From NCBI GenBank assembly GCA_963718615.1, contig OY970368.1, forward strand, positions 1,120,001 through 1,184,000: a stretch of DNA of 64,000 nt. Direction: 5' to 3'. This document shows positions 26,564 through 59,716 of this stretch, piece by piece. Position numbers and translations under genes: made by a program. The first letter of the stretch is position 1, and each line of letters starts with the position of its first letter. The notes under the pieces were generated by a model. It searched no databases. It had not been told where the DNA came from and saw nothing but the letters and a program-made list of their open reading frames with translations. Source of the DNA: an uncultured cyanobacterium. GTDB taxonomy: Bacteria; Cyanobacteriota; Cyanobacteriia; PCC-9006; JAAUQQ01.

Positions 26564-27082
26564 TTAAAACCGATAAGCAGCTCCGGTTTGAACGCTAATA
26601 GCTTGACCATTTTCATAGCCACTAATCCCCCAGCGAACATCACCAAAGAGAGCCACATTCGGATTGATTGCCCCTTCTACACCAGCGGTGAGCATGAAGG
26701 CCGAGCGATCGCCCAAAGGGGTATCCCCATCACCCACCACAAAGGAACCGCCACCCCCGAGATAAACGTTGGAAACATTGCTGGTGGCAATATCATAGGT
26801 CACCATCGGCTGAATCGCGGCACCATCGCCGGAGAACAATACTGAGCCCCGGAGCGAAACCGGTGCTGCGTTGAGGGCATAACGACCTTGAACCACTCCC
26901 CCAATCTGAATATCACCAAAGCCTTGGTCCGTATTCCCGCCAACGGAAAGACCACCACCGAGATAGTGACCTTCTAGGCCAGTTGGCTTGACTGCGGTTT
27001 GGGCAGAAGCAGGTCCGGCAATTGCAATCAAAGCAGCGGTTGCGGACAGAATAGCAGCGGAAACAACAGTTGAAAATTTCAT
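26564..27082 (-). CDS. Small outer-membrane beta-barrel protein
   Basis: Signal peptide, amphipathic strands, terminal YRF. Confidence 0.7.
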   Translation of the reverse strand: MKFSTVVSAAILSATAALIAIAGPASAQTAVKPTGLEGHYLGGGLSVGGNTDQGFGDIQIGGVVQGRYALNAAPVSLRGSVLFSGDGAAIQPMVTYDIATSNVSNVYLGGGGSFVVGDGDTPLGDRSAFMLTAGVEGAINPNVALFGDVRWGISGYENGQAISVQTGAAYRF

Positions 27083-41179: not shown

Positions 41180-42169
41180 AAACTGTTGCTTATCCATCAT
41201 GGCCATGATGGCGGGTAAATCGACGGAAATGCGATCGCGCAAACCCAACTGCTCCACTGCCGCCGAGAATGCCTGTCCCCGTGCCATACGGTAGCCAATT
41301 TCGGCAATTTCGGCCCAAGTGAGCGTACTTTCGAGATACCCCTTGGCGACGCGGGTGAGCAAAAACTCGGGCTGGGAATCGGTTTGTTGCGGCAGCATCC
41401 CGTGGGGGAGATCCGGTACGCCATTAAAGCTGAGATACCAGGTTTGAGGCTGATAGCGCAGGACACGTTTGAACAGCAGGCCGTGGTTTTGGGGGGCGAT
41501 CGCCCCATCGCTTGCGCTAGCAACTACAAACATCGATTGCAAGGGCTCAAACTGGGCCACCCGCACCACCTCTTCTCCCATTTCCAAAAAGAGCTGTAGG
41601 GCAGGCATGGCAAAGCCTCCATACCCTGGTAACTCCGGGGCTTCGCGGGGGCGTATCCATTCGTGGTAGCGGTTAATTTTGCGGGTGAATTGTTGGATGA
41701 CGCGATCGCTCTCTGCTAAATAGGGTGCAAGTAGGAGGGTTTTGGCGATCGCCCGAGGCTGGTCCAGCGTCAGCCAAGCGGCTAGGGTTGCTCCCCCCGC
41801 TAGCCCCCCGACCACCACCTGCTGCCCCAAGGTCTGAGCCTGTTGAAGCCAGTCCCGTGCAAAGGTTTGATAGGTTTGGGCCTCTGTTGGCAGGGGCGGC
41901 AGGCTGAACGGTCCCCAGTCTCCGGCAAGACCATGGTTGGGTAGGAGGGGGACTAAAACGTTGTAACCGGCGCGAAACAGCGCCTGGGCCAGGGCCAAAA
42001 ACTGGTAGGGGGCTGCGGTAAACCCATGAAATAACAGACAGACCTTAGGGGTGGGTTGGGGATGCAAAAACATAATAGGCCGACAGCGCGGATTGCGTAG
42101 CGGTGCTAGGTTGGCCTGCTGGGTGGCGGTTTGAATGAGGGCTTGGGTGACCTGGGCGTAGTCGGGCAT
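41144..42169 (-). CDS. Alpha/beta hydrolase fold protein (nucleophile position is Ala)
   Basis: LFHGFTAAP oxyanion motif; GLAGG at the nucleophile elbow. Confidence 0.75.
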   Translation of the reverse strand: MPDYAQVTQALIQTATQQANLAPLRNPRCRPIMFLHPQPTPKVCLLFHGFTAAPYQFLALAQALFRAGYNVLVPLLPNHGLAGDWGPFSLPPLPTEAQTYQTFARDWLQQAQTLGQQVVVGGLAGGATLAAWLTLDQPRAIAKTLLLAPYLAESDRVIQQFTRKINRYHEWIRPREAPELPGYGGFAMPALQLFLEMGEEVVRVAQFEPLQSMFVVASASDGAIAPQNHGLLFKRVLRYQPQTWYLSFNGVPDLPHGMLPQQTDSQPEFLLTRVAKGYLESTLTWAEIAEIGYRMARGQAFSAAVEQLGLRDRISVDLPAIMAMMDKQQFLGLNPRVRRGL

Positions 42170-42376
42170 GCAGTCATCAAACGCAATGGGGGTGATCCTA
42201 GTGTAAGACTGGGCGGTTTGGCTAGGGAGAGGGATGCCGGTTTTATGTGGGGTGGAGAGCCCTGGTTGCAGGTCTCCCTGTCGTCCTTTCCCAGGCGTGA
42301 TCTTTAGCATTTGACATCGCCTCCAAAGGGGTCTTCGGCTACAATAGGGGCAATCTGTTCATGCTTGGATTTTGCC

Positions 42377-42709
42377 ATGCTCCTTGTTCCCACAACTGAG
42401 CCTATACCGCTAAAGACTGACGATTCGGGTGTAATTCGTGTGGGTCAAACTCGGGTGACGTTGGACACGGTGGTTACTGCGTTTTTAACGGGTTGCATGG
42501 CGGAGGAAATTTGGGAACAGTATCCATCGCTTCAGCTTTCTGATGTTTACTCGGTGATTGGATATTATCTGCGTCACCAGCAAGAAGTGGATGCGTATCT
42601 GGCAGAACGGCGGCGGCTGGCGGCAAAGGTTCGTGGCGAGGCTGAGTTGCGGTTTAATCCTGTGGGTGTACGCTATCGCCTCCTGGCCCGACGCGAGGCC
42701 CAAGGATAA
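42377..42709 (+). CDS. DUF433 family antitoxin-like protein
   Basis: IRVGQTRVTLDTVV..EEI..QYPSL.LSDVY. Confidence 0.85.
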   Translation: MLLVPTTEPIPLKTDDSGVIRVGQTRVTLDTVVTAFLTGCMAEEIWEQYPSLQLSDVYSVIGYYLRHQQEVDAYLAERRRLAAKVRGEAELRFNPVGVRYRLLARREAQG

Positions 42710-42812
42710 GCCCAGATGGTTCGATTTTGGGTGGATTTCGGTGGGTTTCGGGAATTTTAGCGAAAAATTTGGTTTCTGGCTGAGCGGGTGCCCTGTTCTC
42801 ATTTCTGCCTTC

Positions 42813-45800
42813 TCAATTCTCCTTTCCTCTTGGCTCTATCCCACACAATGCCCGATCTTCATTGCTGACATCCGGGTTGGTGCGGAGGTAGTCGCTGGCC
42901 CAGGTGCAAGCCAGCTCCAGGAGTCGATCCACATCCCAAGCTGCGAGCTTGACGGTGCCGTCATAACCGCCGGAAACAATCGTCTGGCCATCGGGACTGA
43001 AATTCACGCTAGAGACCCAGCCTTGATGGCCTTTGAGGGTAGCGCGCTCGCTGCCGTCGGTGTTCCAGAGCTTGACGGTGCCGTCAGAACCGCCGGAAAC
43101 AATCGTCTGGCCATCGGGACTGAAATTCACGCTAGAGACCCAGCCTTGATTGCCTTTGAGGGTAGCGCGCTCGCTGCCGTCGGTGTTCCAGAGCTTGACG
43201 GTGCCGTCATAACCGCCGGAAACAATCGTCTGGCCATCGGGACTGAAATTCACGCTCAAGACCCTGCCTTGATGGCCTTTGAGGGTAGCGCGCTCGCTGC
43301 CGTCGGTGTTCCAGAGCTTGACGGTGCCGTCATAACCGCCGGAAACAATCGTCTGGCCATCGGGACTGAAATTCACGCTCAAGACCAAGCCTTGATGGCC
43401 TTTGAGGGTAGTGCGCTCGCTGCCGTCGGTGTTCCAGAGCTTGACGGTGCCGTCAGAACCGCCGGAAACAATCGTCTGGCCATCGGGACTGAAATTCACG
43501 CTAGAGACCCAGCCTTGATGGCCTTTGAGGGTAGTGCGCTCGCTGCCGTCGGTGTTCCAGAGCTTGACGGTGCCGTCCTCACCGCCGGAAACAATCGTCT
43601 GGCCATCGGGACTGAAATTCACGCTAGAGACCCAGCCTTGATTGCCTTTGAGGGTAGCGCGCTCGCTGCCGTCGGTGTTCCAGAGCTTGACGGTGCCGTC
43701 CTCACCGCCGGAAACAATCGTCTGGCCATCGGGACTGAAATTCACGCTATAGACCCTGCCTTGATGGCCTTTGAGGGTAGTGCGCTCGCTGCCGTCGGTG
43801 TTCCAGAGCTTGACGGTGCCGTCATAACCGCCGGAAACAATCGTCTGGCCATCGGGACTGAAATTCACGCTCCTGACCCAGCCTTGATTGCCTTTGAGGG
43901 TAGCGCGCTCGCTGCCGTCGGTGTTCCAGAGCTTGACGGTGCCGTCCTCACCGCCGGAAACAATCGTCTGGCCATCGGGACTGAAATTCACGCTATAGAC
44001 CCTGCCTTGATGGCCTTTGAGGGTAGCGCGCTCGCTGCCGTCGGTGTTCCAGAGCTTGACGGTGCCGTCAGAACCGCCGGAAACAATCGTCTGGCCATCG
44101 GGACTGAAATTCACGCTCAAGACCAAGCCTTGATTGCCTTTGAAAATATTGCGTTCCCGAATGCCATAAACCTGAGTCAGCGCTGCTTGAGTCTGCAACT
44201 TTGCTTCCAGAGTCTCCTGCTTCACGTTCTGCCCGATTCCTTTCGGTTTTGATTCAATCTGCTGAAAGGTTCTTCCTGCCCGAATTCCCTGCACCAATCC
44301 CAAGAGTGGCCGAGTCTGTGCCTCTGCCTCCGCCTTCCTTGCATCCACCTGTACCCCCACAATCCGCAACGTCCATTCCGCCTCTGCAAGCGTGTCTTCT
44401 GCAACTCTTGCACTTCGTGCCGCTTTCCGTTGTTCCTGCTTCGCTAGTCTCAGTTGCTGCTGCGCCTGAGTAATTTGAGCGTTGGTCTGTTGCACTTTGA
44501 CTTCTGCCGCTTGTGCTTTCCCCTGTGCCTGCTGCGCCTGAGCTGCGGCTGCTTGCACAGTTTGCTCTGCCGCCGCCACCTGCTGCTCTACCGCCGCTAC
44601 CTGCTGATTCGCAGCGCTTTCCTGCTCCTGCGCTACCCGCACCGCCTGATTAAGCCGCTCCCGCTCCGCTTCTACCTCTTTCACCTGTTGCTGAGCCATC
44701 TGGGCCTGCTGCTGGGCTGCCTTTGCCTGCTTCTGAGCCTCAGCAGACTGCTGTTTTGCCGTCAGCTCCTTACGCTCCATCGCCTGCAAGTTCTCGTTGA
44801 GCGTCTCTCTTTGCTGCGTCAGGGTTTCCTTCTCCTGTTGGGCCGCATTCGTTTCTTTCCGAGCTGTTTGCAAATCCGCCCGAGCAAACAACGCACTCGG
44901 TATGGCCACCCCCGCCAACGCCAACGCCGCCACAGCCCCAACCACACTGCGCAAATTCTGCCGATTCGCCTGCTTTGTTGCTACCGCGACTTTTTCTTCT
45001 GCCTGCTGCGCCGCCACCGCCAACTGCCGCTCCGCCTCTAACCGCGTCTCCTCCAACTGTTGCTCCGCCGCCGCCCGCGCCGCCGTCAAAATCTGATTCG
45101 CCTCTTGCTCCGCCGCAACTTCCCGCTGCGCCTTGTCCAACGCATCCCGCTGTTCCTGCTCCAACGACGCCTGAATAAACTGATTCTCCACCTGCCGCAA
45201 CCTCGGCTGCATAAATGCCCAAGACCGCGCCTCCGCCAACGGTTTCCCCCGCAATAGCCGCGCCACATCCTGATCCTGCTGCCAAGCCGCCATCTGCTCC
45301 GCAAACGGACACAACCGCCCCAGCTCCCGCTGCACCCACGCCCCATCAAACACCGCTCGATAAATGCGGTTATACCCCCGCACCAGCCCCGCCCGCTTCA
45401 CCACCAGCCCCGTCAACCGCAGCGCCATCTCCTCCGGGGCATCCGTCGCCGCCACCTCGCCCCGCTCCAAAATGCTCTGATAAATCCCCAACATCTCCCG
45501 CCGCCGCTGCTCCGGCTGACCCAAAATCCGATCTCGAATCGTCCGCAGATGCGTCTGCTCATCATTCGCCTCCCAATGACCGATGATCCGGGATTGCACA
45601 ATTGTAGACACATCAATACCGGTCGGAGTATCGACATCAACCTGAGTGTTGGCCACTAATCCGCAGACCCGTTGGGTGAGGAAGGGCTGGCCCCCTGTCC
45701 AAGCCAAAATTTCCCGCAACACCTCCGGCCCCCGGTTCCCTAATCCCACCGCCAGCGGCCCCACCTCACCCTCCCCAAAGCCCTCCAGCTCAATCGCTCG

Positions 45801-46409
45801 GCCAATATTAAACGGCGTCCGCGTCTTATCTTGAATCAGCTCCCCCGGCGTCGCCACCCCAAACAACGCAAACGTCAGCCGCCCATACTCCGGCCTGTCC
45901 ACCCGCCCGTTATAGCAAGCCCGAATAAACGCAAAAAAATCATCAATCGGAAACGGCAAACTCAACACACTATCGATCTCATCCACAAAGATCGCCAGAC
46001 TCCCCGGCAACTCCGCCAGCAGCCAATCCATCAACATCCCCAATCGATCCACCGGGGGAAACTCCTTGCGCTCCCGCCACCAGCTCCGCAACTGCAGCCG
46101 CTCCGTCAGCCCCAACCCCGCCACAATCTGCCGCGCCAGCCCCGCATACCACTGCTCCTCCGTCGGGCTTTGGCTACCAATCGAGGTAATATCAACGGCG
46201 ACACAGGCCACCCCCTCCCCCTGAAGCCGCCCCATCGTCCGCACCCGCAGACTCGACTTGCCCATCTGCCGCGAATTCAGCACATAACAAAACACCCCCG
46301 CCCTCAGCCCTGCATACAGCTCAGCATCCGCCCGCCGCTCCACATAGGTCGGGCTGTCCCCCGGCAGCGTCCCCCCGACCTGATAGAAACTAGCCCCTGA
46401 AGTCGCCAT
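42813..46409 (-). CDS. AAA_35 (STAND) NTPase - TM - coiled coil - 10x WD40 protein
   Basis: [39 protein letters not shown]; hydrophobic [20 protein letters not shown]; Q/A-rich coil; 10 WD40 repeats. Confidence 0.9.
42940..44150 (-). repeat. 123-bp near-identical tandem repeat x10 (WD40 coding)
   Basis: Unit LKG(H/N)[35 protein letters not shown](A/T)T. Confidence 0.95.
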
Positions 46410-46447
46410 AGGAATCACCCGTGCAAGCCAGACATCATACCCGCAAA

Positions 46448-47110
46448 TTAACCCGTTCGTAACCGATTTTCCAGCTCCTCTAGCGCCTGCAAACTCCCCA
46501 CAATCCAAGCGCGCTGAATCGCTGTCTCAACCCATTCAACCATCGGTAAATCTGGAAACTGCCGACTCACCGCTGAAGCCACATACTCCCCTGCTTCTAG
46601 CCAGTAAATCGTCAGACGCTCATTGGCATAAATCCAAACCTCAGGAACCTGAAGCGCCCTATAGGCTGCGATCGCCGTCAACGACGTCACATCCGTCTCA
46701 ATCGCCAAATCCGGCGGCGGATCCCCCGGCTCCAGACGGCGCTTCCCAATCATCCGCTCATAGTGTTGAATATAAAAACAAGCATCTGGCTCAATTCCCG
46801 CAATGCCCTGCTGCTTAAACGTCGTAGACCCTAGGGGTTGATATCGAATCCGTCGCGATCGCAGCACGGTTTTGACAATATCCGAAATCAAGTCCGTCGG
46901 CGCTGTACATTTCAAACAGCCATGGTCAGGACGTGGCACCGTAATCTCCAAAGTATCGTGACAGTAGGCGATTCGAGCCGAGCGGCGATCGCCCATCTCC
47001 GCCAAAATCGCTTCAAACTCCAGCCAATTCACATTTGGAATCGTCACTCGGCTACCGGGTTCGAGCCGGAGCTGACTAATGGGTTTGCTAATCGGTAAGA
47101 GCGCTGTCAT
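46448..47110 (-). CDS. Uma2 family endonuclease-like protein
   Basis: [26 protein letters not shown]. Confidence 0.9.
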
Positions 47111-47170: not shown

Positions 47171-48690
47171 TTATCTCGATTCTAAGCGATCGCCAAAATA
47201 CACCCGATACAACTCGCTCCGAAACGTCACCTCATTCCCCAACAAATCCACCAATCCCATGCTGTGCAACTGAAACGCCACTACCGACTCCAGCCGCACC
47301 GGCCCATCGGACTGCACCAACTGCCGCACCGCCGCCGCCAAGACCGGGTGCTGCTCCAGATTCCACAGATGCCGCCGCAAATGGTCGCCATAGAGCCCAG
47401 CTTCCGTCGGCGCTTCCCGCAGCAACTCCGTCAGCGTCTTGTCCCGGCGGGCAATGACATACAGCGCCAGCCGCACCAAATAGGGATGTCCCCCTACCAT
47501 ATCCATCAGCCGCTCAATAGGCGATGCATTCCAGTTCAAGCCATGGCGCTGGGCCAAATCCTGCACCTGCTCCGCCGTAAACTCCCGGAGTTCGATGGGC
47601 AATCCCACGTTAAAGGGCGACTGATTGATATTCATGGGGATATAGACTTCCGTGGAATGCACCACCACTAAACGGAAACGTTTCCAGATATCTCGCGTTG
47701 TCGCCGTATCATTCCAGGTCCGTAGCATCCCAAAAAAGTCCGCTGCAATGTTGGGATACTCAAACACCATATCCACCTCATCCAGACAGAGCGTTAGCGG
47801 CTGCTCCAGGCTGTCCAAAATATACTCTTCAAAATAGGCCGTGCAGTTGAGCTTGCTGCCGTAGATCTCATCATCCCAATAGTCATTCAGTTTGTTGGGC
47901 AACTTCAGCCGTCGCGCTACACTGGCCGCGAACCAGCGCAAAAACCGACGCAGGTCGCCAAACACCACCGAATCCGCAATCTGAAAACTCAGCGCCACCC
48001 CCAACGAGCCATTCTGCTCAGCATGGCGCAGCACCCGCGACATCAACGACGTTTTGCCCATTTGCCGGGGAGCCTTGATCCGAATCAGCGCCCCCGGTTG
48101 GGTAATGGCCTCATAACAGCGATCTTCAATCCCTGGCCGCTCCACATAAAACTGTGAAGCCAAATCCACCTGTCCCCCCGGCAGCTCCGGCTCCGCCACC
48201 GGCAGCGGCGGCATGTTCACCGACTCTTGCCCTATCAAGCTGGGGGCAATGGGTAGATCCACACTCTCTGGCACTGTCATGGGTTGCGTCGCTTGCAGTG
48301 TGCCTGTTTTGAGTAAGTCTAGAACTTCCGCGAGAATCCGGGGGGTGTCTGCGGGACTTTTCCACTCTCGCTGCTGAATGGAATGGAGATAGCCTCGCAG
48401 ATCGTAGTTGAGCGGGGCATCCAGTGGAAAATTCACCCGAATGGGCAGAATCCAGGGCCTACCGGTCTGTTCCTGGCGCTGTCTGGCCCGTTTCACTTCC
48501 TCGGTCACCATTTCGCTCAAAGCCGCCTGCTCCGACAGCAGCACGAGCATATAGTCACAGGTGTTCAGCTCCTGGTCAATCCGCTGCACCCAATCTTCGC
48601 CCAACCGCAAACTTGCCCCTGCCATAAAGGCGCTATAGCCTTCGGCCTCTAGCGCGGTCTGAAAGGTTTGTGCCAAGACCTGATCCGGGT
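47171..48690 (-). pseudogene. 3' part (TIR + AAA_35) of the IS-interrupted gene
   Basis: TIR motifs SLRLGEDW..I..EL, LLSEQA.LSEMVTEE, ILPIRV; AAA_35 motifs FYVER, APRQMGKTS, LDEVD, SPFNVG, GGHPYL. Confidence 0.88.
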
Positions 48691-48795
48691 TATCAAGTGT
48701 CAAGACATTTGCCTGTCGCGACAATTAGAAGGCGGGGAGCCCACTGAATTGGCAAAAGGAAATGAGAAGCGGCAATCTCAGGTCAAGACGACAAT

Positions 48796-49644
48796 CTAAG
48801 ATCGCTTCTGGTGTGTCGATGTTTGGGAGTCAGATTCAGAGGATTTTGCCGGGAGTGCCTTCAAGTTCTCAGAGCGCTGGTGAGCGGAGCGTTTACGAAA
48901 ACTGTCCGCCTTGATTTCGAGAATGACCGCATGGTGAATGAGGCGGTCAACGGCGGCGACGGTCATCATGGAATCACCAAAGATGGAGTTCCACTCACTG
49001 AACGGCTGATTGGCAGTGACCATGATGCTTTTGCGCTCATAGCGATAGGCAATGAGTTCAAAGAGAACGGAGGTTTCTGCCTCGGATTTTTGGACATAGC
49101 CGAGGTCATCAATGATCACGAGGTCAAAGCGGTCGAGCTTTTTCAGGGCAGGCTGAAGCTGGAGATGAAGCTTTTCTTTTTGGAGATACTGCACCAGGGT
49201 GGTGGCACAGAAGAATTTGACGCGCTTGCCCGCTTCCAGGGCGGCACGAGCGATGCCAGCGGCCAGATGGGTTTTGCCGACCCCAGAAGGTCCGAAGAAG
49301 AGACAGTTTTGGGCGTCATCAATCCACTGGGGTTCAGTGGCGAGTTTTTGAATCGGGAGAGGGTTAACCAGGGGCAGGTGTGTCCAATCGAAATTGGAAA
49401 CCGTTTTGGCGTTGGGCAGTTGAGCTTCGGTGATGGCTCTTTGGAGGCGCAAAGCCTTGCGGCGGTCTGTTTCGAGTTGGCACAGGGCCAAGAGAAATTG
49501 CGCGTAGGACCAGGTCTCTCGCATGGCTTGCTGCTCCAAGGTCTCCCAGTGGTTGAGCATATGGGATAAGCGCAGGTGCTTGAGCTGAGCGCTGAGGCTT
49601 TGGTAAGGGCTCAGCTCCGGTTGAGACGAGCTCTGGTTCTGCAT
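48796..49644 (-). CDS. istB: IS21 helper ATPase IstB
   Basis: GPSGVGKTHLA, IIDDLGY, AAVDRLIHH. Confidence 0.95.
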   Translation of the reverse strand: MQNQSSSQPELSPYQSLSAQLKHLRLSHMLNHWETLEQQAMRETWSYAQFLLALCQLETDRRKALRLQRAITEAQLPNAKTVSNFDWTHLPLVNPLPIQKLATEPQWIDDAQNCLFFGPSGVGKTHLAAGIARAALEAGKRVKFFCATTLVQYLQKEKLHLQLQPALKKLDRFDLVIIDDLGYVQKSEAETSVLFELIAYRYERKSIMVTANQPFSEWNSIFGDSMMTVAAVDRLIHHAVILEIKADSFRKRSAHQRSENLKALPAKSSESDSQTSTHQKRS

Positions 49645-51154
49645 CTGGGATGACGCTGCTGTGGGTGAACAGAAGGGCATCGTAGTCGTTGAGGTCATGT
49701 TGTTGGACATTCACGGTGGGGAATTCGAGTTTGGTGAGCAACTGAAAATGGAGTCTGAGCCTTGAGAGGGTGAGGGTTTTGGCCTCAATCTCTGGGAAGA
49801 GGTAGTCAGCGACCGCCGCTTCCTTGTTTTGGGTCGCCGCAATATAGAGGGCTTCGACCATGAGCACGGCGGCAGAATCAAGCTCAAAGCCAGCCTGGAG
49901 CTGTTTCCAGAGTTGGTGATAGCGCTCATTGGGCAGGAGGTCCTCTCGCCAGGTGCTGTGGAGGAAGGCCAAGGGCTTTTTGCGCAACCCTTCGATGACA
50001 TGGTGATAGTCCACCGAGCGGGCGCGCCGCTTGTCCTTGTCAGTAGAACGAATCCGTTTCAACCTGAACACTTCATGGCCTTCGAGGTAGCCCATCAGGC
50101 GGTTGTGGTGCAGATGCACTTCCAGGGACCGGCCAATTAAGCGAGACGGCACGCTGTAGAGCATGCAGCGGATATCAATCGTGCTGTTGCTGCTCACCTT
50201 GGCGGTGAGGAGTTCGTAGTCCGCAGCCCGGTATTTGGGCAACGCCTGGAGATGCGCTTTCTCATGCTCATACTTATCCTGATGCTGGGCATTGAGCTTG
50301 GCCACACAGTCATTGAGCAGGTCTTGATAGTCGCTGACGCTAGCGAAGTCGGTGCTGCCGCGCAGGTACATCGCTTGGACAATGCGGTTCTTCAGATGAC
50401 CGTGGGGGCCTTCAATAGAACCGTTCTCGTGGGCGATTCCCCGGTTGTTTCGCGTCGGTTGCAACCGATAGTGCTCACACAGGTCGTCATACAAGCGCGT
50501 CAGCGGTTTGGTCTTCTTCCCACCCAGATTTCGATAGGCCGCACTCAGGCTATCGGTGCGATGCTGCTTTGGAGCCCCGCCGCAGGCAAACAGGGCATTC
50601 TGCAATCCTTCGGATAGGGCGACAAAGCTTTCACCCCCCTCGATTAACTCCGCGTAGGACCAGCCGCTGTAGCCCAAGCGGTAGTGATAAATCAAGTGCT
50701 CATAGGGCTTTCCATTTATCGTCACCACCGTCCCTTTGAGTTCGGTGAAGTCGGAAAATCCTTGCACCCCCGGCTCGTGACGCAGCTCAAACATCACCTC
50801 GGGAGCTGGACCATACAGTGCTTTCCAGGTTCTCACTCGCCGCTGAAGCGTCCTGAGCACTTGCGGATATTGACCCGGATATTTGTCCTGCAAATGCTCA
50901 AATAACGTCGTCGGTTTCAGTCTTGGCTCAGCTCGCAGCATCGCCTCTAGTTCGGCTTCCCAAAGACCGTTGAGTGGATCTGGCCGGGTCCGCACCCCGG
51001 TGCCCTCTCCACTCCCCTGCTGCCACTCGTTGGCATCCATTCGTTGCGCGGTTCGCACCGAAAATTCCGCCACCGCTGCCGCATCTTGCTGCGACAGGCC
51101 ATGCTCCTTTGCATTCATGTACACTCGCTGTTGATACATTATTACTCTCGACAC
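49364..51154 (-). CDS. istA: IS21 transposase IstA
   Basis: RTRPDPL, SDFT, TDSLSAA, HENGSIE, YSVPSRLIG. Confidence 0.95.
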   Translation of the reverse strand: MSRVIMYQQRVYMNAKEHGLSQQDAAAVAEFSVRTAQRMDANEWQQGSGEGTGVRTRPDPLNGLWEAELEAMLRAEPRLKPTTLFEHLQDKYPGQYPQVLRTLQRRVRTWKALYGPAPEVMFELRHEPGVQGFSDFTELKGTVVTINGKPYEHLIYHYRLGYSGWSYAELIEGGESFVALSEGLQNALFACGGAPKQHRTDSLSAAYRNLGGKKTKPLTRLYDDLCEHYRLQPTRNNRGIAHENGSIEGPHGHLKNRIVQAMYLRGSTDFASVSDYQDLLNDCVAKLNAQHQDKYEHEKAHLQALPKYRAADYELLTAKVSSNSTIDIRCMLYSVPSRLIGRSLEVHLHHNRLMGYLEGHEVFRLKRIRSTDKDKRRARSVDYHHVIEGLRKKPLAFLHSTWREDLLPNERYHQLWKQLQAGFELDSAAVLMVEALYIAATQNKEAAVADYLFPEIEAKTLTLSRLRLHFQLLTKLEFPTVNVQQHDLNDYDALLFTHSSVIPDAEPELVSTGAEPLPKPQRSAQAPALIPYAQPLGDLGAASHARDLVLRAISLGPVPTRNRPPQGFAPPKSHHRSSTAQRQNGFQFRLDTPAPG

Positions 51155-51323
51155 TCGTTAGAGTCCTTTCTTTCCAGGGGGACCCTATGAGTGTCTTTTT
51201 TTGTCGATCGCCACGCCAGTGAGCTGTCAAAGTCTCACGTCTGTCTCACGATCCAAGCCACGCTTTCGCGACAACTCCCGCCAGGAAATGTCGAGCAGCC
51301 GCCAATGCTATTGTCGTCTAACA

Positions 51324-51819
51324 CCGGGTCCTGGCTGCGATAGCTAATAAAGCAATGGGGAGGCTTTTCGGCTGCTAAGTCGGCTGCTAAGTCGGCTGCG
51401 GATAAAGAGTCCTGGCTCGCCATCGATTTCGACTTTTCAGGACGACGCTCTTCCCAGAGTTTGTCAAATCGACTCAGATTCTCGGCTGGCTCACGACTCC
51501 AGAGCATCAATTTAAACTTCCATTCTTCTGAGCCCCGGGTGGTGGCCCGTTCGTCTTCTAGGATCCCCAGATGGTCTGGCAAGTAATGGCTGAGCGCATA
51601 CCGGACCTGGTCAGCAGTCAGCGGGTCTCCTTCTCCTTTACGGGTGAGCTGTTCAAAAAAACGACGTTTGGCCTCAACCCTCAGCTCCGGTGACTCGGTG
51701 TCTAACCAAAGAACATGGACCTCTTTTGCGGGTTCTCCGGTTTCGACAAACTCTAAGATTGCAGCCAAAAGCTGCCGAACCCGTAACCGGTTCGTAGGAC
51801 CGTAGGAATACTTAGCCAT
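51324..51819 (-). pseudogene. 5' part (putative wHTH + start of TIR) of the IS-interrupted gene
   Basis: Ends HCFISYRSQDP at the IS junction and joins in frame to DQVLAQTF. Confidence 0.85.
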
Positions 51820-51903
51820 ACCGTTTTAGTAAAAACACCCTCAACCATCCTGTCTTTTCATCCTACTGAATCCCTTGCTTGAGTTGCGGGGACTTCATCA
51901 AAA

Positions 51904-52074
51904 CAAAAAGTTTGGGGTATCTCTAAACTGGCTCTTCCCCCAAACTGGCCTCTAGTCCTTCTACTGTAACCGGTTCAGCCTGCTTGAGTCCTGCATTTGC
52001 TTTGGACCACTCCCCCAAATCGAGCCTGTGGTTGTCGATTCATCGCCCCTCTGGGGACTGGAGCAACCACCATG
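51904..52074 (+). promoter_or_regulatory. Conserved upstream module, copy 1
   Basis: Gapless similarity to 53082-53252 (offset 1178). Confidence 0.75.
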
Positions 52075-52953
52075 GTCCACACGACTGCTCGCCACCGCAA
52101 GGCCACTGACAAAAAGCCGATTTCCTGGCTCGGCCTGCTATTGCTCGTGAGTCCCTTTGTCAGCTTCGCTAGCCTGGGTCTCTCCACTGGGTTCTTACTT
52201 CACACCCTGCATCGCCTAGACAATCCAACTCCCATCGTTGTAGCTGAGGTCGATGATGTACCCAATCAACCTGAGGAGAAGCCTTTAGCTTCTCTTCCAG
52301 TTTGGGCAAACCAGCTCGACAACAGCTTGGCTAGCCGCATCGTCAAGTACATGATCAGCCAGGGCTACCAGGTCGATACGAAACCGAATGAGTACAACAT
52401 CATCTACATCGAAGGGATGAACCTTGATGGCAGCTTGAATGATGATCGCCCCAACGTCTTTAACGATCTTCGTCTAGTAATCGAATTCGTTGAAGAGCAG
52501 AAAGGGCAGCCCAAAATCGTTGGCCTGTGGGAGGCAACCACTGAGCCGGGATGGCACTACACATTTAACCCTCTCAATGCCAAAGGGGCTGCTCGCATCC
52601 AGTTTGGTCAGTACAAGGCTTGGCAGATGGGACTGCATGGCAAAGATCTGCATGTGGCGTTGGAGCAAGCGGCACCGATTCCGGTTTATCGCGATTTGAA
52701 TCAGGACTTTATGCGCACGGGGGATGAGCTGGATATTGGCGAGTTTGACATCAATCAGCACTGGGGCTATGACCATCCCGTTGACGATGTTTACACCGCC
52801 AGCGCGGGCTGTTTGGTGGGGCGAACCTGGGAGGGTCATCAGGCGTTTATGGACTTGCTGAAACAAGATCGTCGCTACCAAGCCGATCAACAGTACGTTT
52901 TCAGCACCACCATTATCTCTGGAGATGACTTGGTCAAGCAGTTTGCGCAATAG
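52072..52953 (+). CDS. Membrane-anchored protein with L,D-transpeptidase(YkuD)-like His/Cys motif
   Basis: N-terminal TM; ATTEPG; INQHWG...SAGCLVG. Confidence 0.6.
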   Translation: MVHTTARHRKATDKKPISWLGLLLLVSPFVSFASLGLSTGFLLHTLHRLDNPTPIVVAEVDDVPNQPEEKPLASLPVWANQLDNSLASRIVKYMISQGYQVDTKPNEYNIIYIEGMNLDGSLNDDRPNVFNDLRLVIEFVEEQKGQPKIVGLWEATTEPGWHYTFNPLNAKGAARIQFGQYKAWQMGLHGKDLHVALEQAAPIPVYRDLNQDFMRTGDELDIGEFDINQHWGYDHPVDDVYTASAGCLVGRTWEGHQAFMDLLKQDRRYQADQQYVFSTTIISGDDLVKQFAQ

Positions 52954-52981
52954 CACCCCGGATCCAAGCCCCAAACCCGAT

Positions 52982-53006
52982 GAGAGAGCCCTGCTCTCTC
53001 TTTTTT
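52982..53006 (+). terminator. Intrinsic terminator
   Basis: GAGAGAGC-CCT-GCTCTCTC-TTTTTT. Confidence 0.85.
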
Positions 53007-53081
53007 GTTGACTTCTTGTTTGTGGATTTCTTGCTGGAGTTTGGTTTGAGTTTTGCACAATTCCCGAGCCTTCTCAACTCC

Positions 53082-53252
53082 CAAAAAGTTTGGAGATCCC
53101 CCCAACTTCGTTCTCCCCCAAACCTAAATAAAAGTCTTATCTCATAAGCTTTTTAGCGACTTTACCCCCCTTGCTTGCTTTGTCCCACTCCCCCAAACGG
53201 ACTCTGGAATCGTCAACCCAGTCCCCCGATGGGGAACGGAATCAACAGCATG
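53082..53252 (+). promoter_or_regulatory. Conserved upstream module, copy 2
   Basis: Gapless similarity to 51904-52074. Confidence 0.75.
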
Positions 53253-54032
53253 TTCAACATACTCAATCGCTCACTCAAGTGCCGTACCTCTCTTTCCTGG
53301 GTCGATCGCTTACTCCTCTTGAGCCCTGGGATCACATTGATGAATACGGTGGCGACCTTTGCCGTTTTTGGCTACGGGATGCATTTACATCATGCAATCT
53401 CCGCCCCTACCTCGGATCATTCTGTCTCTGCAAACTCTCCAGTCTACCTCCCTGGGCTGGAATCCAATATTTTGCACAAGCCTTTTCCCCCGACGGCAGC
53501 ATCTCACCCAACCGTTCAGTTACCCAAGACCGACTTTTATCGATTAGTGACCCTGAGCGTTTTAGAAGCTCCCACCTCCATGGGCCGATTGGACGTAATT
53601 CAGTCCGTATTTAATCGCCTCAATGCGCCTTCAGTGGGTGCAGGGCAATTTGGATCTAGCATTACTGAGATTGTTTTCGAGGAAAAGCAATACGAGCCCT
53701 ATTTTCATTTTCAGGCCAGCGATATTGTGGATGAAGCGAGTGCGATCGAGGTGCTGCGATCGCGCGGTTATTCCAAGTCAGATGCCCTTTTTGCGCTCAA
53801 CGAAGTCATTGCCAATTTGCAACATCCCAAGCTGATGGCCGATGCTCGAAAACATGTGGGCGGTAGAACCCAATTCAAAGGTGTAAGCCAGTATCCCAGC
53901 CGTTGGCCCAACGAAGACCCCCTACGTGAAACAGGAGAAAACTTCTTTCACATTGACCCCAAGAGCCAAACCTATGAGCAGCTATCCCAATTGATGCTGC
54001 AAGGACCATTAGTGGTTCAGATGCTTGATTAA
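53250..54032 (+). CDS. Membrane-anchored SleB/Hydrolase_2-like cell wall hydrolase
   Basis: LEA..MGRLDVIQSVFNR...SITEIVF..KQYEP. Confidence 0.65.
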   Translation: MFNILNRSLKCRTSLSWVDRLLLLSPGITLMNTVATFAVFGYGMHLHHAISAPTSDHSVSANSPVYLPGLESNILHKPFPPTAASHPTVQLPKTDFYRLVTLSVLEAPTSMGRLDVIQSVFNRLNAPSVGAGQFGSSITEIVFEEKQYEPYFHFQASDIVDEASAIEVLRSRGYSKSDALFALNEVIANLQHPKLMADARKHVGGRTQFKGVSQYPSRWPNEDPLRETGENFFHIDPKSQTYEQLSQLMLQGPLVVQMLD

Positions 54033-54246
54033 ATCAGGAAAACTTGAGATATGCATTGCTTGCACCGCTCAGCGGGCAAGCGATGCTCAAGTCAACCTCA
54101 TTCGACCCAATAGCCGAGCCTCCGTCAAAGCAAAGTTTAAGGGCGATCGCACCCCCATCTTTCTTCCCTTCAACACAATTGCAGTCTTTCTGATCTTGGG
54201 CGTTAAACCGGAACGATTTCTGCTCCCATGGCGATCGACCTAAATC

Positions 54247-54720
54247 CTAACCCCTTGACCAGCGAGCCAAGGCTTTTTCAGGGTTGCTAATTTCTGCCAC
54301 CGAACAATAAAAATAATCTTGCCAATTCGCTTCCGGCAACCCCGCAAAGACCATTAAATTTAAGGGATATTCTTCGCTATCGCTGCAGCGTCGAAAATCA
54401 TCTCGAAAAAGAAAGATAGGTTTTTGGAGGGCGATCGCCATCCCCAACTCCACCATCACCCCTTCATCCGGCGGCGTACCATTCACCACCGCAAATAAAC
54501 CATCCGCCGCTCGCACATCGGCCACATCGGCCTGAGCCACACCATAGGCCCAGCCCGGTTGAGAAAAATCTACCTGATTATTGCGAGCAAAGGGCTCCCA
54601 AACCTCCAGGCCCAGTGCTTCTAGCTGTGCACAAAGAGGCGGTAATAGCAACGCTCGTTGCTGGGTCGAAAATCCGTAGGGATTAGCTAAATATAGGGTT
54701 TTAGTCATGGTTTTAGTCAT
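54247..54720 (-). CDS. Nucleoside 2-deoxyribosyltransferase family protein
   Basis: LYLANPYGFS, DEGVMVELGMAIAL, NLM. Confidence 0.88.
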   Translation of the reverse strand: MTKTMTKTLYLANPYGFSTQQRALLLPPLCAQLEALGLEVWEPFARNNQVDFSQPGWAYGVAQADVADVRAADGLFAVVNGTPPDEGVMVELGMAIALQKPIFLFRDDFRRCSDSEEYPLNLMVFAGLPEANWQDYFYCSVAEISNPEKALARWSRG

Positions 54721-59062: not shown

Positions 59063-59716
59063 TTATCTATTTTCCTTTTGTAATTTTTGAATGGTCTCCC
59101 GAAGACCCAATTCTGCTGCAACTTCATCCTGTTTTGCAAGCTCCAGAAATTGATAGAATGCTCTCATATCAACCCTGGGAAAGGTTGGACTAGTATCAAC
59201 TTCTTGGTATTCAAGACCTCTCAAAACTTGAATTTTCAAAACCGTCCCATCAAATCGCCAAAACTCAGGAACTCCCATCGCCGCATAAAGCCGATCCTTA
59301 TCAATATCGGTATGAGTAATATCGACTTCAACCACTAAATCCGGAGGGGGATCCTGAGCAAGGTTAACGGTTCGCCCTGCCATCACACTATAGTTTTGAA
59401 TATAGTAACCATTGTCTGGTTGTGCCCCGCGATCGAGATCCTCACGATTGAGTGTAGTGGATCCCAGCGTCTTAATGCGCAACCCGAACTCAACGACTAA
59501 AACGCGAATAAAAAGTTCGATCATGCGAGCCGAAAATTCATGAATTTCGAGGGGCATCACAATTTCTAAGGAACCACAGTTGTATGTCAGACGGGCAACC
59601 GATCGTTCTTCTAAGGCTTGGCGAATTTGTTGATAAGCTTGCCAATCTAAATTGTGTAAGGTAACCCGTTTCTCGCCCGCAACGGGAACAACCTCTGACA
59701 GCGTTGGAGTAACCAT
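59063..59716 (-). CDS. Uma2 family endonuclease-like protein
   Basis: GSTTL, PPDLVVEVD, GVPEFW. Confidence 0.9.
   Translation of the reverse strand: MVTPTLSEVVPVAGEKRVTLHNLDWQAYQQIRQALEERSVARLTYNCGSLEIVMPLEIHEFSARMIELFIRVLVVEFGLRIKTLGSTTLNREDLDRGAQPDNGYYIQNYSVMAGRTVNLAQDPPPDLVVEVDITHTDIDKDRLYAAMGVPEFWRFDGTVLKIQVLRGLEYQEVDTSPTFPRVDMRAFYQFLELAKQDEVAAELGLRETIQKLQKENR

Follow-up and report, generated by a model that had tools for sequence, protein, structure and literature searches.

Two adjacent plus-strand genes of an uncultured cyanobacterium, here called gene 1 and gene 2, are preceded by copies of the same upstream sequence. They lie in a 64-kb stretch of DNA (64,000 nucleotides of contig OY970368.1, the whole of which is referred to as the window) and raise the question of what the shared sequence is and why parts of it have persisted in front of two different catalytic domains. 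An earlier note on this DNA had described a ~170-bp operator/leader module. We find that the duplicated module is real and statistically solid, a familiar kind of thing in a new instance, with two copies in one genome. As the earlier note had it, the module is duplicated, non-coding and regularly spaced, but the duplicated unit is larger, comprising a whole gene head that includes ~50 codons of a membrane anchor, and a duplicated gene head common to two wall-hydrolase genes is the better description. The conserved non-coding islands of this head suggest common control of both genes by a putative factor.

Results

Conservation upstream of gene 1 and gene 2 is clumped

The two copies, 51904-52074 and 53082-53252, give a gapless alignment at an offset of 1178 and are identical at 102 of 171 positions, whereas the same 171-mer placed at all other offsets of the window yields a mean of 43.2 identities (sd 5.8) and a next best value of 71. 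Block 1, which reads CAAAAAGTTTGG-N10-AACT-N7-CCCCCAAAC, is identical between the copies at 30/42 positions, and its run of five A residues is perfectly conserved in both. It is followed by a spacer of exactly 51 nt in each copy, with 19/51 identities and no indel, and then by block 2, with 53/78 identities including the ATG, which ends at the start codons of gene 1 (52072) and gene 2 (53250) and carries a Shine-Dalgarno (SD)-like GGAG or GGAA 8-9 nt 5' of each ATG. The adjoining first codons are identical at 18/46 positions, below the level of the boxes. All the coordinates and counts of the earlier note, its 51-nt spacing and the end of block 2 at the two ATGs were reproduced, and the preservation of boxes over spacers (30/42 and 53/78 vs 19/51), from which it had suggested selection, fits constraint on the boxes.

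Within the 171-nt alignment, the four longest runs of identity measure 13, 12, 10 and 8 nt; when the match vector was shuffled 100,000 times, a sum as high as theirs (43) came up 55 times and a single run of 13 or more 5,958 times. Sites resembling the block 2 core, TTGCTTTGNNCCACTCCCCCAAA, with three mismatches or fewer are confined to these two positions in the 64 kb (0/100 shuffles). A third copy was sought in the window with nhmmer profiles built from the complete module, the separate blocks and the core; no further match fell below E 0.26, the value of the best one (26886-26911), which lies inside an open reading frame (ORF). A multi-copy miniature inverted-repeat transposable element (MITE), the explanation against which the earlier note had itself warned, was not seen within the window, which holds two copies in 64 kb.

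Upstream of each ATG the reading frame stays open as far as a TTG with which block 2 begins (51997 and 53175). An N-terminal coding extension from these TTG codons was ruled out, the mismatches being distributed 9/9/7 by codon position over 25 codons, and a coding reading of block 2 was likewise rejected after a six-frame comparison in which no conserved peptide was found beyond what the identical nucleotides dictate. From the codon-position pattern and the six-frame comparison we conclude that block 2 is non-coding. As a terminator-like hairpin stands between gene 1 and gene 2, the two genes belong to two transcription units (Table 1).

Table 1. Coordinates of the two module copies, the genes that they precede and the neighbouring features (positions in the window).
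Feature	Coordinates	Strand	Content
IS21-type element	48796..51154	-	istA-like ORF and IstB ATPase; between the TIR start and the 47171-48724 gene
EAD4 ORF	51235..51819	-	EAD4 at residues 7-124, first TIR residues (CFISYRSQDP), then unrelated residues to the stop
Block 1, copy 1	51904..51945	+	A5 run, GTTTGGGG, AACT, decamer TCCCCCAAAC at 51936-51945
Spacer, copy 1	51946..51996	+	51 nt, divergence near saturation, no indel
Block 2, copy 1	51997..52071	+	TTGCTTTG, CCACTCCCCCAAA, CCCC-N3-GGGGA, GGAG 8 nt before the ATG
Gene 1 (P0003, 293 aa)	52072..52953	+	residues 1-50 basic stretch and putative anchor helix; Pro/Glu-rich linker; putative catalytic domain ~80-293
Terminator-like hairpin and T run	52982..53008	+	8-pair stem with 5 GC pairs, then TTTTTTGTTG
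Block 1, copy 2	53082..53123	+	decamer TCCCCCAAAC at 53114-53123; near-copy TCCCCCCAAC at 53097-53106
Block 2, copy 2	53175..53249	+	decamer at 53189-53198
Gene 2 (P0001, 260 aa)	53250..54032	+	putative signal-anchor head, linker, SleB-like (Hydrolase_2) domain at residues ~88-258

The duplication extends into a putative signal-anchor head

Similarity between the two genes runs on into the coding region at an offset of 1172, a shift of 6 nt, with 71% identity over 52121-52154. At the protein level the heads of gene 1 and gene 2 share 13 of 49 residues by blastp (E 0.004 for that single comparison), and their common part of ~50 codons consists of a basic stretch and, after it, a long hydrophobic helix with W-L...L-L-x-S-P-F. 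By inspection and from a hydropathy window, we read this helix as a putative type-II signal anchor. Ser, Gly, Thr and Ala are abundant in it, and its Kyte-Doolittle mean is 1.65-1.95 over 19 residues. In signal-anchor-release endolysins, a weakly hydrophobic N-terminal helix leaves the membrane, leading to activation of the enzyme.

The anchor motif W[LVI]-x3-8-SP[FGA][IVL], sought in the first 90 residues, is present in five of the 273 proteins searched, namely P0001, P0003, P0123, P0124 and P0125. These include 4/4 full-length proteins of the gene 2 family and 1/120 listed proteins of the gene 1 family, the latter being the query, P0003, itself. Other heads of the gene 1 family comprise PG_binding_1, a twin-arginine-like signal in a Tolypothrix plasmid gene and a different transmembrane helix in a Calothrix plasmid gene. 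Since all full-length proteins of the gene 2 family carry the head whereas members of the gene 1 family carry others, the small SleB-like family to which gene 2 belongs appears to be the native carrier of the head, and gene 1 appears to be chimeric. When 5.8 billion longer proteins were searched with a profile of the five heads, those five alone were returned; scoring was limited to the 8,000 candidates with the most words in common, so that absence is weak evidence. The gene 1 head shares 36-40% identity with those of P0123-P0125, and the gene 2 head only 19-27% with any of the other heads; either the head of gene 2 changed faster after the duplication or gene 1 received its head from a relative.

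Both genes encode probable peptidoglycan enzymes

P0001 alone scores 17.3 bits against Hydrolase_2 (PF07486), under the 27-bit Pfam cut-off. A profile built from its family retrieved 348 representatives at E <= 0.001 and hit SleB 4fet_B at E 1.1e-5, and among 12 relatives scanned Hydrolase_2 was detected at E <= 0.001 in 8, four of which reach 27 bits. In the AlphaFold model of gene 2 the domain has a predicted local distance difference test (pLDDT) score >93, and the top Foldseek matches are SleB catalytic domains (probability 0.90-0.95, TM-score 0.53-0.64 on the target). Family profile and catalytic fold place gene 2 in Hydrolase_2/SleB, and Glu106, in an LEA motif, is invariant over 25 members of the family. 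Gene 2 is thus like SleB in profile, fold and the invariant Glu106, and differs in being cyanobacterial and in having a signal anchor instead of PG_binding_1; as judged from the profile and the model, it most likely encodes a membrane-anchored SleB-like putative lytic transglycosylase, a periplasmic wall enzyme. A literature search on cyanobacterial SleB-type anchored enzymes turned up general reviews only.

The closest non-orthologous relatives of the SleB-like domain (P0126-P0136 and others) lie inside proteins of 1,000-5,700 residues, the nearest in proteins of 2-5 thousand, that also carry Peptidase_M23 or phage minor-tail (tape-measure type) domains. A tblastn search of plasmids with gene 2 found 3 Acaryochloris records with distant domain matches, and a distant SleB-like copy is present in "DD-metalloendopeptidase" genes on conjugative Acaryochloris plasmids.

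The domain of gene 1 has >1,353 relatives, mostly cyanobacterial and named "peptidoglycan-binding domain-containing", and its matches include phrog_3000 (1.4e-32) and an endolysin PHROG (2.6e-12). Across the family, His230 and Ala-Gly-Cys (245-247) do not vary and Ser244 hardly does, a spacing (H-x13-SAGC) that resembles the motif of YkuD enzymes. The model has a pLDDT of ~90 over the domain, and LdtMt1/2, Ldtfm, Pgp2 and Csd6 recur among its weak Foldseek matches. The H-x13-SAGC spacing and these recurrent matches are reminiscent of the YkuD L,D-transpeptidases/carboxypeptidases, but gene 1 has no Pfam YkuD match and the structural matches are weak, and we treat a YkuD-fold enzyme as a lead only. 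Most likely, gene 1 encodes a periplasmic peptidoglycan enzyme held at the membrane.

The catalytic domains had been called unrelated. Their folds do differ, but both are probable periplasmic peptidoglycan enzymes, gene 2 by its SleB profile and fold and gene 1 by the endolysin PHROGs, and the two enzymes, of unrelated fold, plausibly have complementary bond specificities. Since both genes encode probable peptidoglycan enzymes, their pairing makes functional sense.

A tblastn search of plasmids with gene 1 found 15 records, and the boxes were absent from the 3 of these 15 loci that were examined. On the Tolypothrix sp. PCC 7910 plasmid NZ_CP050444.1, the gene 1 relative with the twin-arginine-like signal stands directly downstream of an "AAA-like domain-containing protein" gene. 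In the window gene 1 likewise adjoins an AAA_35 gene, and we claim no kinship of the two AAA proteins.

A decamer is repeated in both copies

The sequence TCCCCCAAA occurs 5 times in the window, with 4 occurrences within the two modules, all on the plus strand, and 0/100 shuffles reach 5. Inside each module a pair of TCCCCCAAA stands exactly 75 nt apart, the second decamer of copy 1 (52011-52020) being held in CCACTCCCCCAAA of block 2. An inverted near-copy of the decamer lies in copy 1 at 51910-51919 and a direct near-copy in block 1 of copy 2 (Table 1). In block 1 of copy 1, GTTTGGGG and CCCCAAAC form an 8-bp inverted repeat, with a predicted hairpin of -12.7 kcal/mol (z -1.5). The recurrence of a half-site in direct and inverted orientation, to which the earlier note had drawn attention, is real, given the five copies in the window and the inverted near-copy, and the enrichment of TCCCCCAAA supplies the repeated recognition motif expected of a transcription-factor operator. 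No regulator gene adjoining the module was recognised among the annotated neighbours in the window, and the CCCCCAAAC motif was absent from the titles and abstracts of the cyanobacterial papers listed for it. A hand search for extracytoplasmic function (ECF)-type, extended -10 and SigF-like promoter boxes turned up nothing convincing, and its outcome is not used as evidence.

The divergent neighbour and the setting of the locus

Upstream of copy 1, the divergent ORF 51819-51235 matches EAD4 (PF19959) at E 7e-27. The minus-strand ORF 48724-47171 encodes AAA_35 and a TIR domain without its first strand, and together with the TIR start in the EAD4 ORF it appears to represent an EAD4-TIR-AAA_35 conflict-system gene split by the IS21 element. 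An inverted-repeat search at this element did not fix its ends, junctions or target duplication. The earlier note had proposed the N-terminal domain encoded at 51819-51400 as a DNA binder to be tried on the module. That domain is EAD4, and the part of PMC7159879 that deals with EADs presents them as small non-enzymatic domains for homotypic interactions, with nothing there to suggest DNA binding. Copy 1 had also been assigned to the divergent promoter region of the STAND operon; the divergent EAD4 gene is indeed there, but copy 2 has no divergent gene and follows the terminator of gene 1. As copy 2 lacks a divergent gene, the module belongs to the plus-strand genes and not to the STAND operon. 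The EAD4 linker contains a perfect 12-nt tandem duplication, TCGGCTGCTAAG twice at 51368-51391, which encodes AADLAADLAA.

The window is cyanobacterial, because the HIP1 octamer GCGATCGC is present 99 times in its 64 kb vs 1.8 expected (~1 per 650 bases), cyanophycin synthetase, Ppx/GppA and ExbBD are among the neighbours, and the homologues of gene 1 and gene 2 are cyanobacterial. Two long stretches, 41753-46667 and 47194-53755, are free of HIP1 and take in the WD40, TIR-AAA_35, IS21 and EAD4 sequences, gene 1 and the beginning of gene 2. Across both hydrolase genes G+C is ~0.50 vs 0.55-0.60 nearby. The HIP1-free stretches and the lower G+C suggest an acquired island that includes the hydrolase pair. 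PADLOC returned no match for gene 1, gene 2 or the EAD4 protein. Two genes for Uma2-family (PF05685) putative endonucleases lie on the minus strand (46448-47110 and 59063-59716), the first of which also matches the PADLOC candidate PDC-S17 at E 1e-33. A 72-codon plus-strand ORF at 54025-54243, with an 8-nt overlap with the stop of gene 2 and no Pfam match, overlaps the terminator region of a convergent nucleoside 2-deoxyribosyltransferase gene and is probably not a gene.

Discussion

With a confidence slightly better than even, we propose that the module is the retained cis-regulatory head of an old duplication and gives two wall hydrolases common control. The old duplication would have copied a head made up of an upstream control region, a 5' untranslated leader and ~50 signal-anchor codons, and gene 1 would combine this head with an unrelated peptidoglycan-enzyme domain that is widespread in cyanobacteria and that has other export or wall-binding heads elsewhere. 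Thereafter the spacers and the greater part of the coding head would have drifted to near-random similarity, whereas the four islands and all distances to the ATG would have been kept. As islands and distances persist while spacers and coding head are near random, we infer purifying selection on cis-regulatory sequence, which would maintain the islands and put both membrane-anchored wall hydrolases under one control. The TCCCCCAAAC decamers are candidate sites for one factor, with two direct copies and an inverted partial copy in block 1, and the 3' half of block 2 may keep the ribosome-binding G residues base-paired in the mRNA. Within common control, we lean slightly towards this combination of a protein-bound decamer and a masked SD.

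Several observations weigh against this proposal. Selection is deduced from a pattern of conservation in two copies of one genome. A sigma-70 consensus scan of 51700-54300 found 0 promoter-like sites, so that no start site anchors the model, and direct repeats 75 nt apart are not the usual site layout of a dimeric regulator. The catalytic assignment of gene 1 is weak, with no Pfam, NCBIfam or PDB sequence match and with Foldseek matches no better than E 0.29 (probability <=0.23, TM-score ~0.2-0.3). An exact 19-base core, sought in 185,579 species genomes, has 4 matches, two in Beijerinckiaceae metagenome-assembled genomes (MAGs) and one each in an Anaerolineaceae and an archaeal MAG. The number of matches is about that hand-estimated for 19 fixed bases, and their flanks are identical to the module at 16-31/100 and 10-16/60 positions, which is chance level; neither site of the window is among the four, so that its own genome appears to be missing from this collection. 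As for the masked SD, the two copies have no common minimum-energy fold, and the fold z-scores (-0.7 to -1.5, with +0.3 for one construct) are unremarkable. The helix between the C box and the SD has a probability of ~1.0 in copy 2, whereas in copy 1, with local pairing of the SD, its probability is 0.00. The three double-change pairs of the consensus fold, obtained with two sequences, are not significant, as 61/500 shuffles match them and the structure is derived from the same sequences.

The folding data bear equally on a doubtful alternative, that of a pure RNA leader, in which the C-rich CCACUCCCC would mask GGGGA..GG and act as a thermometer or as a switch responsive to a ligand or a small RNA. 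Such a leader would start upstream of or inside the spacer, and block 1 would serve as a second hairpin or as the alternative partner GUUUGGGG. The RNAalifold consensus does pair CC..UCCCC with GGGGA..GG over the ribosome-binding G's, with two double-change pairs in an inner helix and one in a start-codon hairpin. The G residues of the SD region are predicted to be paired in both copies (P 0.8-1.0), in copy 2 with the C box, and the fixed distance to the ATG fits an RNA element. All 40 cells of the covariation check are paired, but the sides of the helix never vary and are uninformative either way. The zero probability of the C-box/SD helix in copy 1, the ordinary z-scores and the ease with which shuffles reach the covariation score speak against a pure RNA leader, as do the position of the best-kept stretch (TTGCTTTG and the AAA after the C run) outside the predicted helices and the outcome of an Rfam 15 search over 51000-54500 on both strands, which gave 0 matches at E <= 1, ydaO included.

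We consider it unlikely that the islands are a neutral remnant, surviving by chance, as mutational cold spots or through short gene-conversion tracts. There are two copies only, neither a known motif or family nor a promoter-like site was matched, and a run of 13 taken alone is not rare among shuffles. However, the joint clumping of four runs is rare, spacer and coding head are near saturation whereas the boxes are 68-71% identical with perfect cores, and the spacing is free of indels across 171 nt. Tracts of 8-13 nt are also below the length generally held to be needed for homologous recombination, which counts against gene conversion as their source.

A more far-reaching idea, to which we give little credence, is that the module is a control element, whether an operator with a translational leader or a long RNA switch, that fires a two-enzyme autolysis cassette as the lysis output of the TIR/STAND conflict island. 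The cassette would pair a glycan-strand cutter with a peptide-stem enzyme on a release-prone membrane anchor and would travel with the island; this, too, we regard as improbable.

Less probable again is a minus-strand element, in which the block 1 hairpin and T run would end an antisense RNA over the leader or insulate the upstream genes. A terminator scan flags 53105-53090 on the minus strand, with the tail ACTTTTTGGG, the minus strand of copy 1 reads GTTTGGGG-N20-CCCCAAAC and then TTTTTGTTTTG, and the A5 run, which reads T5 on the minus strand, is fully conserved. Yet the loops measure 20-24 nt, the stem of copy 2 is weak (-5.8 kcal/mol), the scan passed over copy 1, and no conserved minus-strand promoter was seen in the poorly conserved coding head. 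Finally, a MITE-like mobile element that landed by chance before both genes would suit a HIP1-free region of lower G+C with an IS21 element, but we regard it as very improbable, as the two copies in 64 kb both end at a start codon and run on into homologous codons, the module is flanked by neither terminal inverted repeats nor target duplications, blastn of 51880-52200 against plasmid and phage collections gave no match and the core matches in other genomes are at chance level.

To our knowledge, the control of membrane-anchored peptidoglycan hydrolases in cyanobacteria is poorly charted. If the boxes are functional, they would mark a small cyanobacterial regulon for such enzymes. The locus is a clear case of a gene head, with control region, leader and anchor, moved whole onto a different catalytic domain, and the module offers a defined 171-nt bait with four short boxes for a regulator search and for a test of operator against RNA action.

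Three known systems invite comparison. As in SD-sequestering leaders and RNA thermometers, a C/U-rich stretch resembling the 16S tail lies 5' of a G-rich ribosome-binding site and the SD is predicted to be paired, but here the SD is predicted to pair with different partners in the two copies, folding energies are ordinary and covariation lends no support. The c-di-AMP (ydaO) riboswitch is associated with wall-hydrolase genes, and the module is like it in being a long conserved leader before genes of cell-wall lytic enzymes, but differs from it in size and sequence and gave no Rfam match. In the WalR-type regulons of Firmicutes, wall-hydrolase genes are co-regulated through a shared operator. 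Like these, the locus has separate units for different peptidoglycan hydrolases with the same short boxes at fixed positions; unlike them, its direct repeats are 75 nt apart and not about 11, TCCCCCAAAC matches no motif found, and the likeness of the two upstream regions comes from duplication of a gene head.

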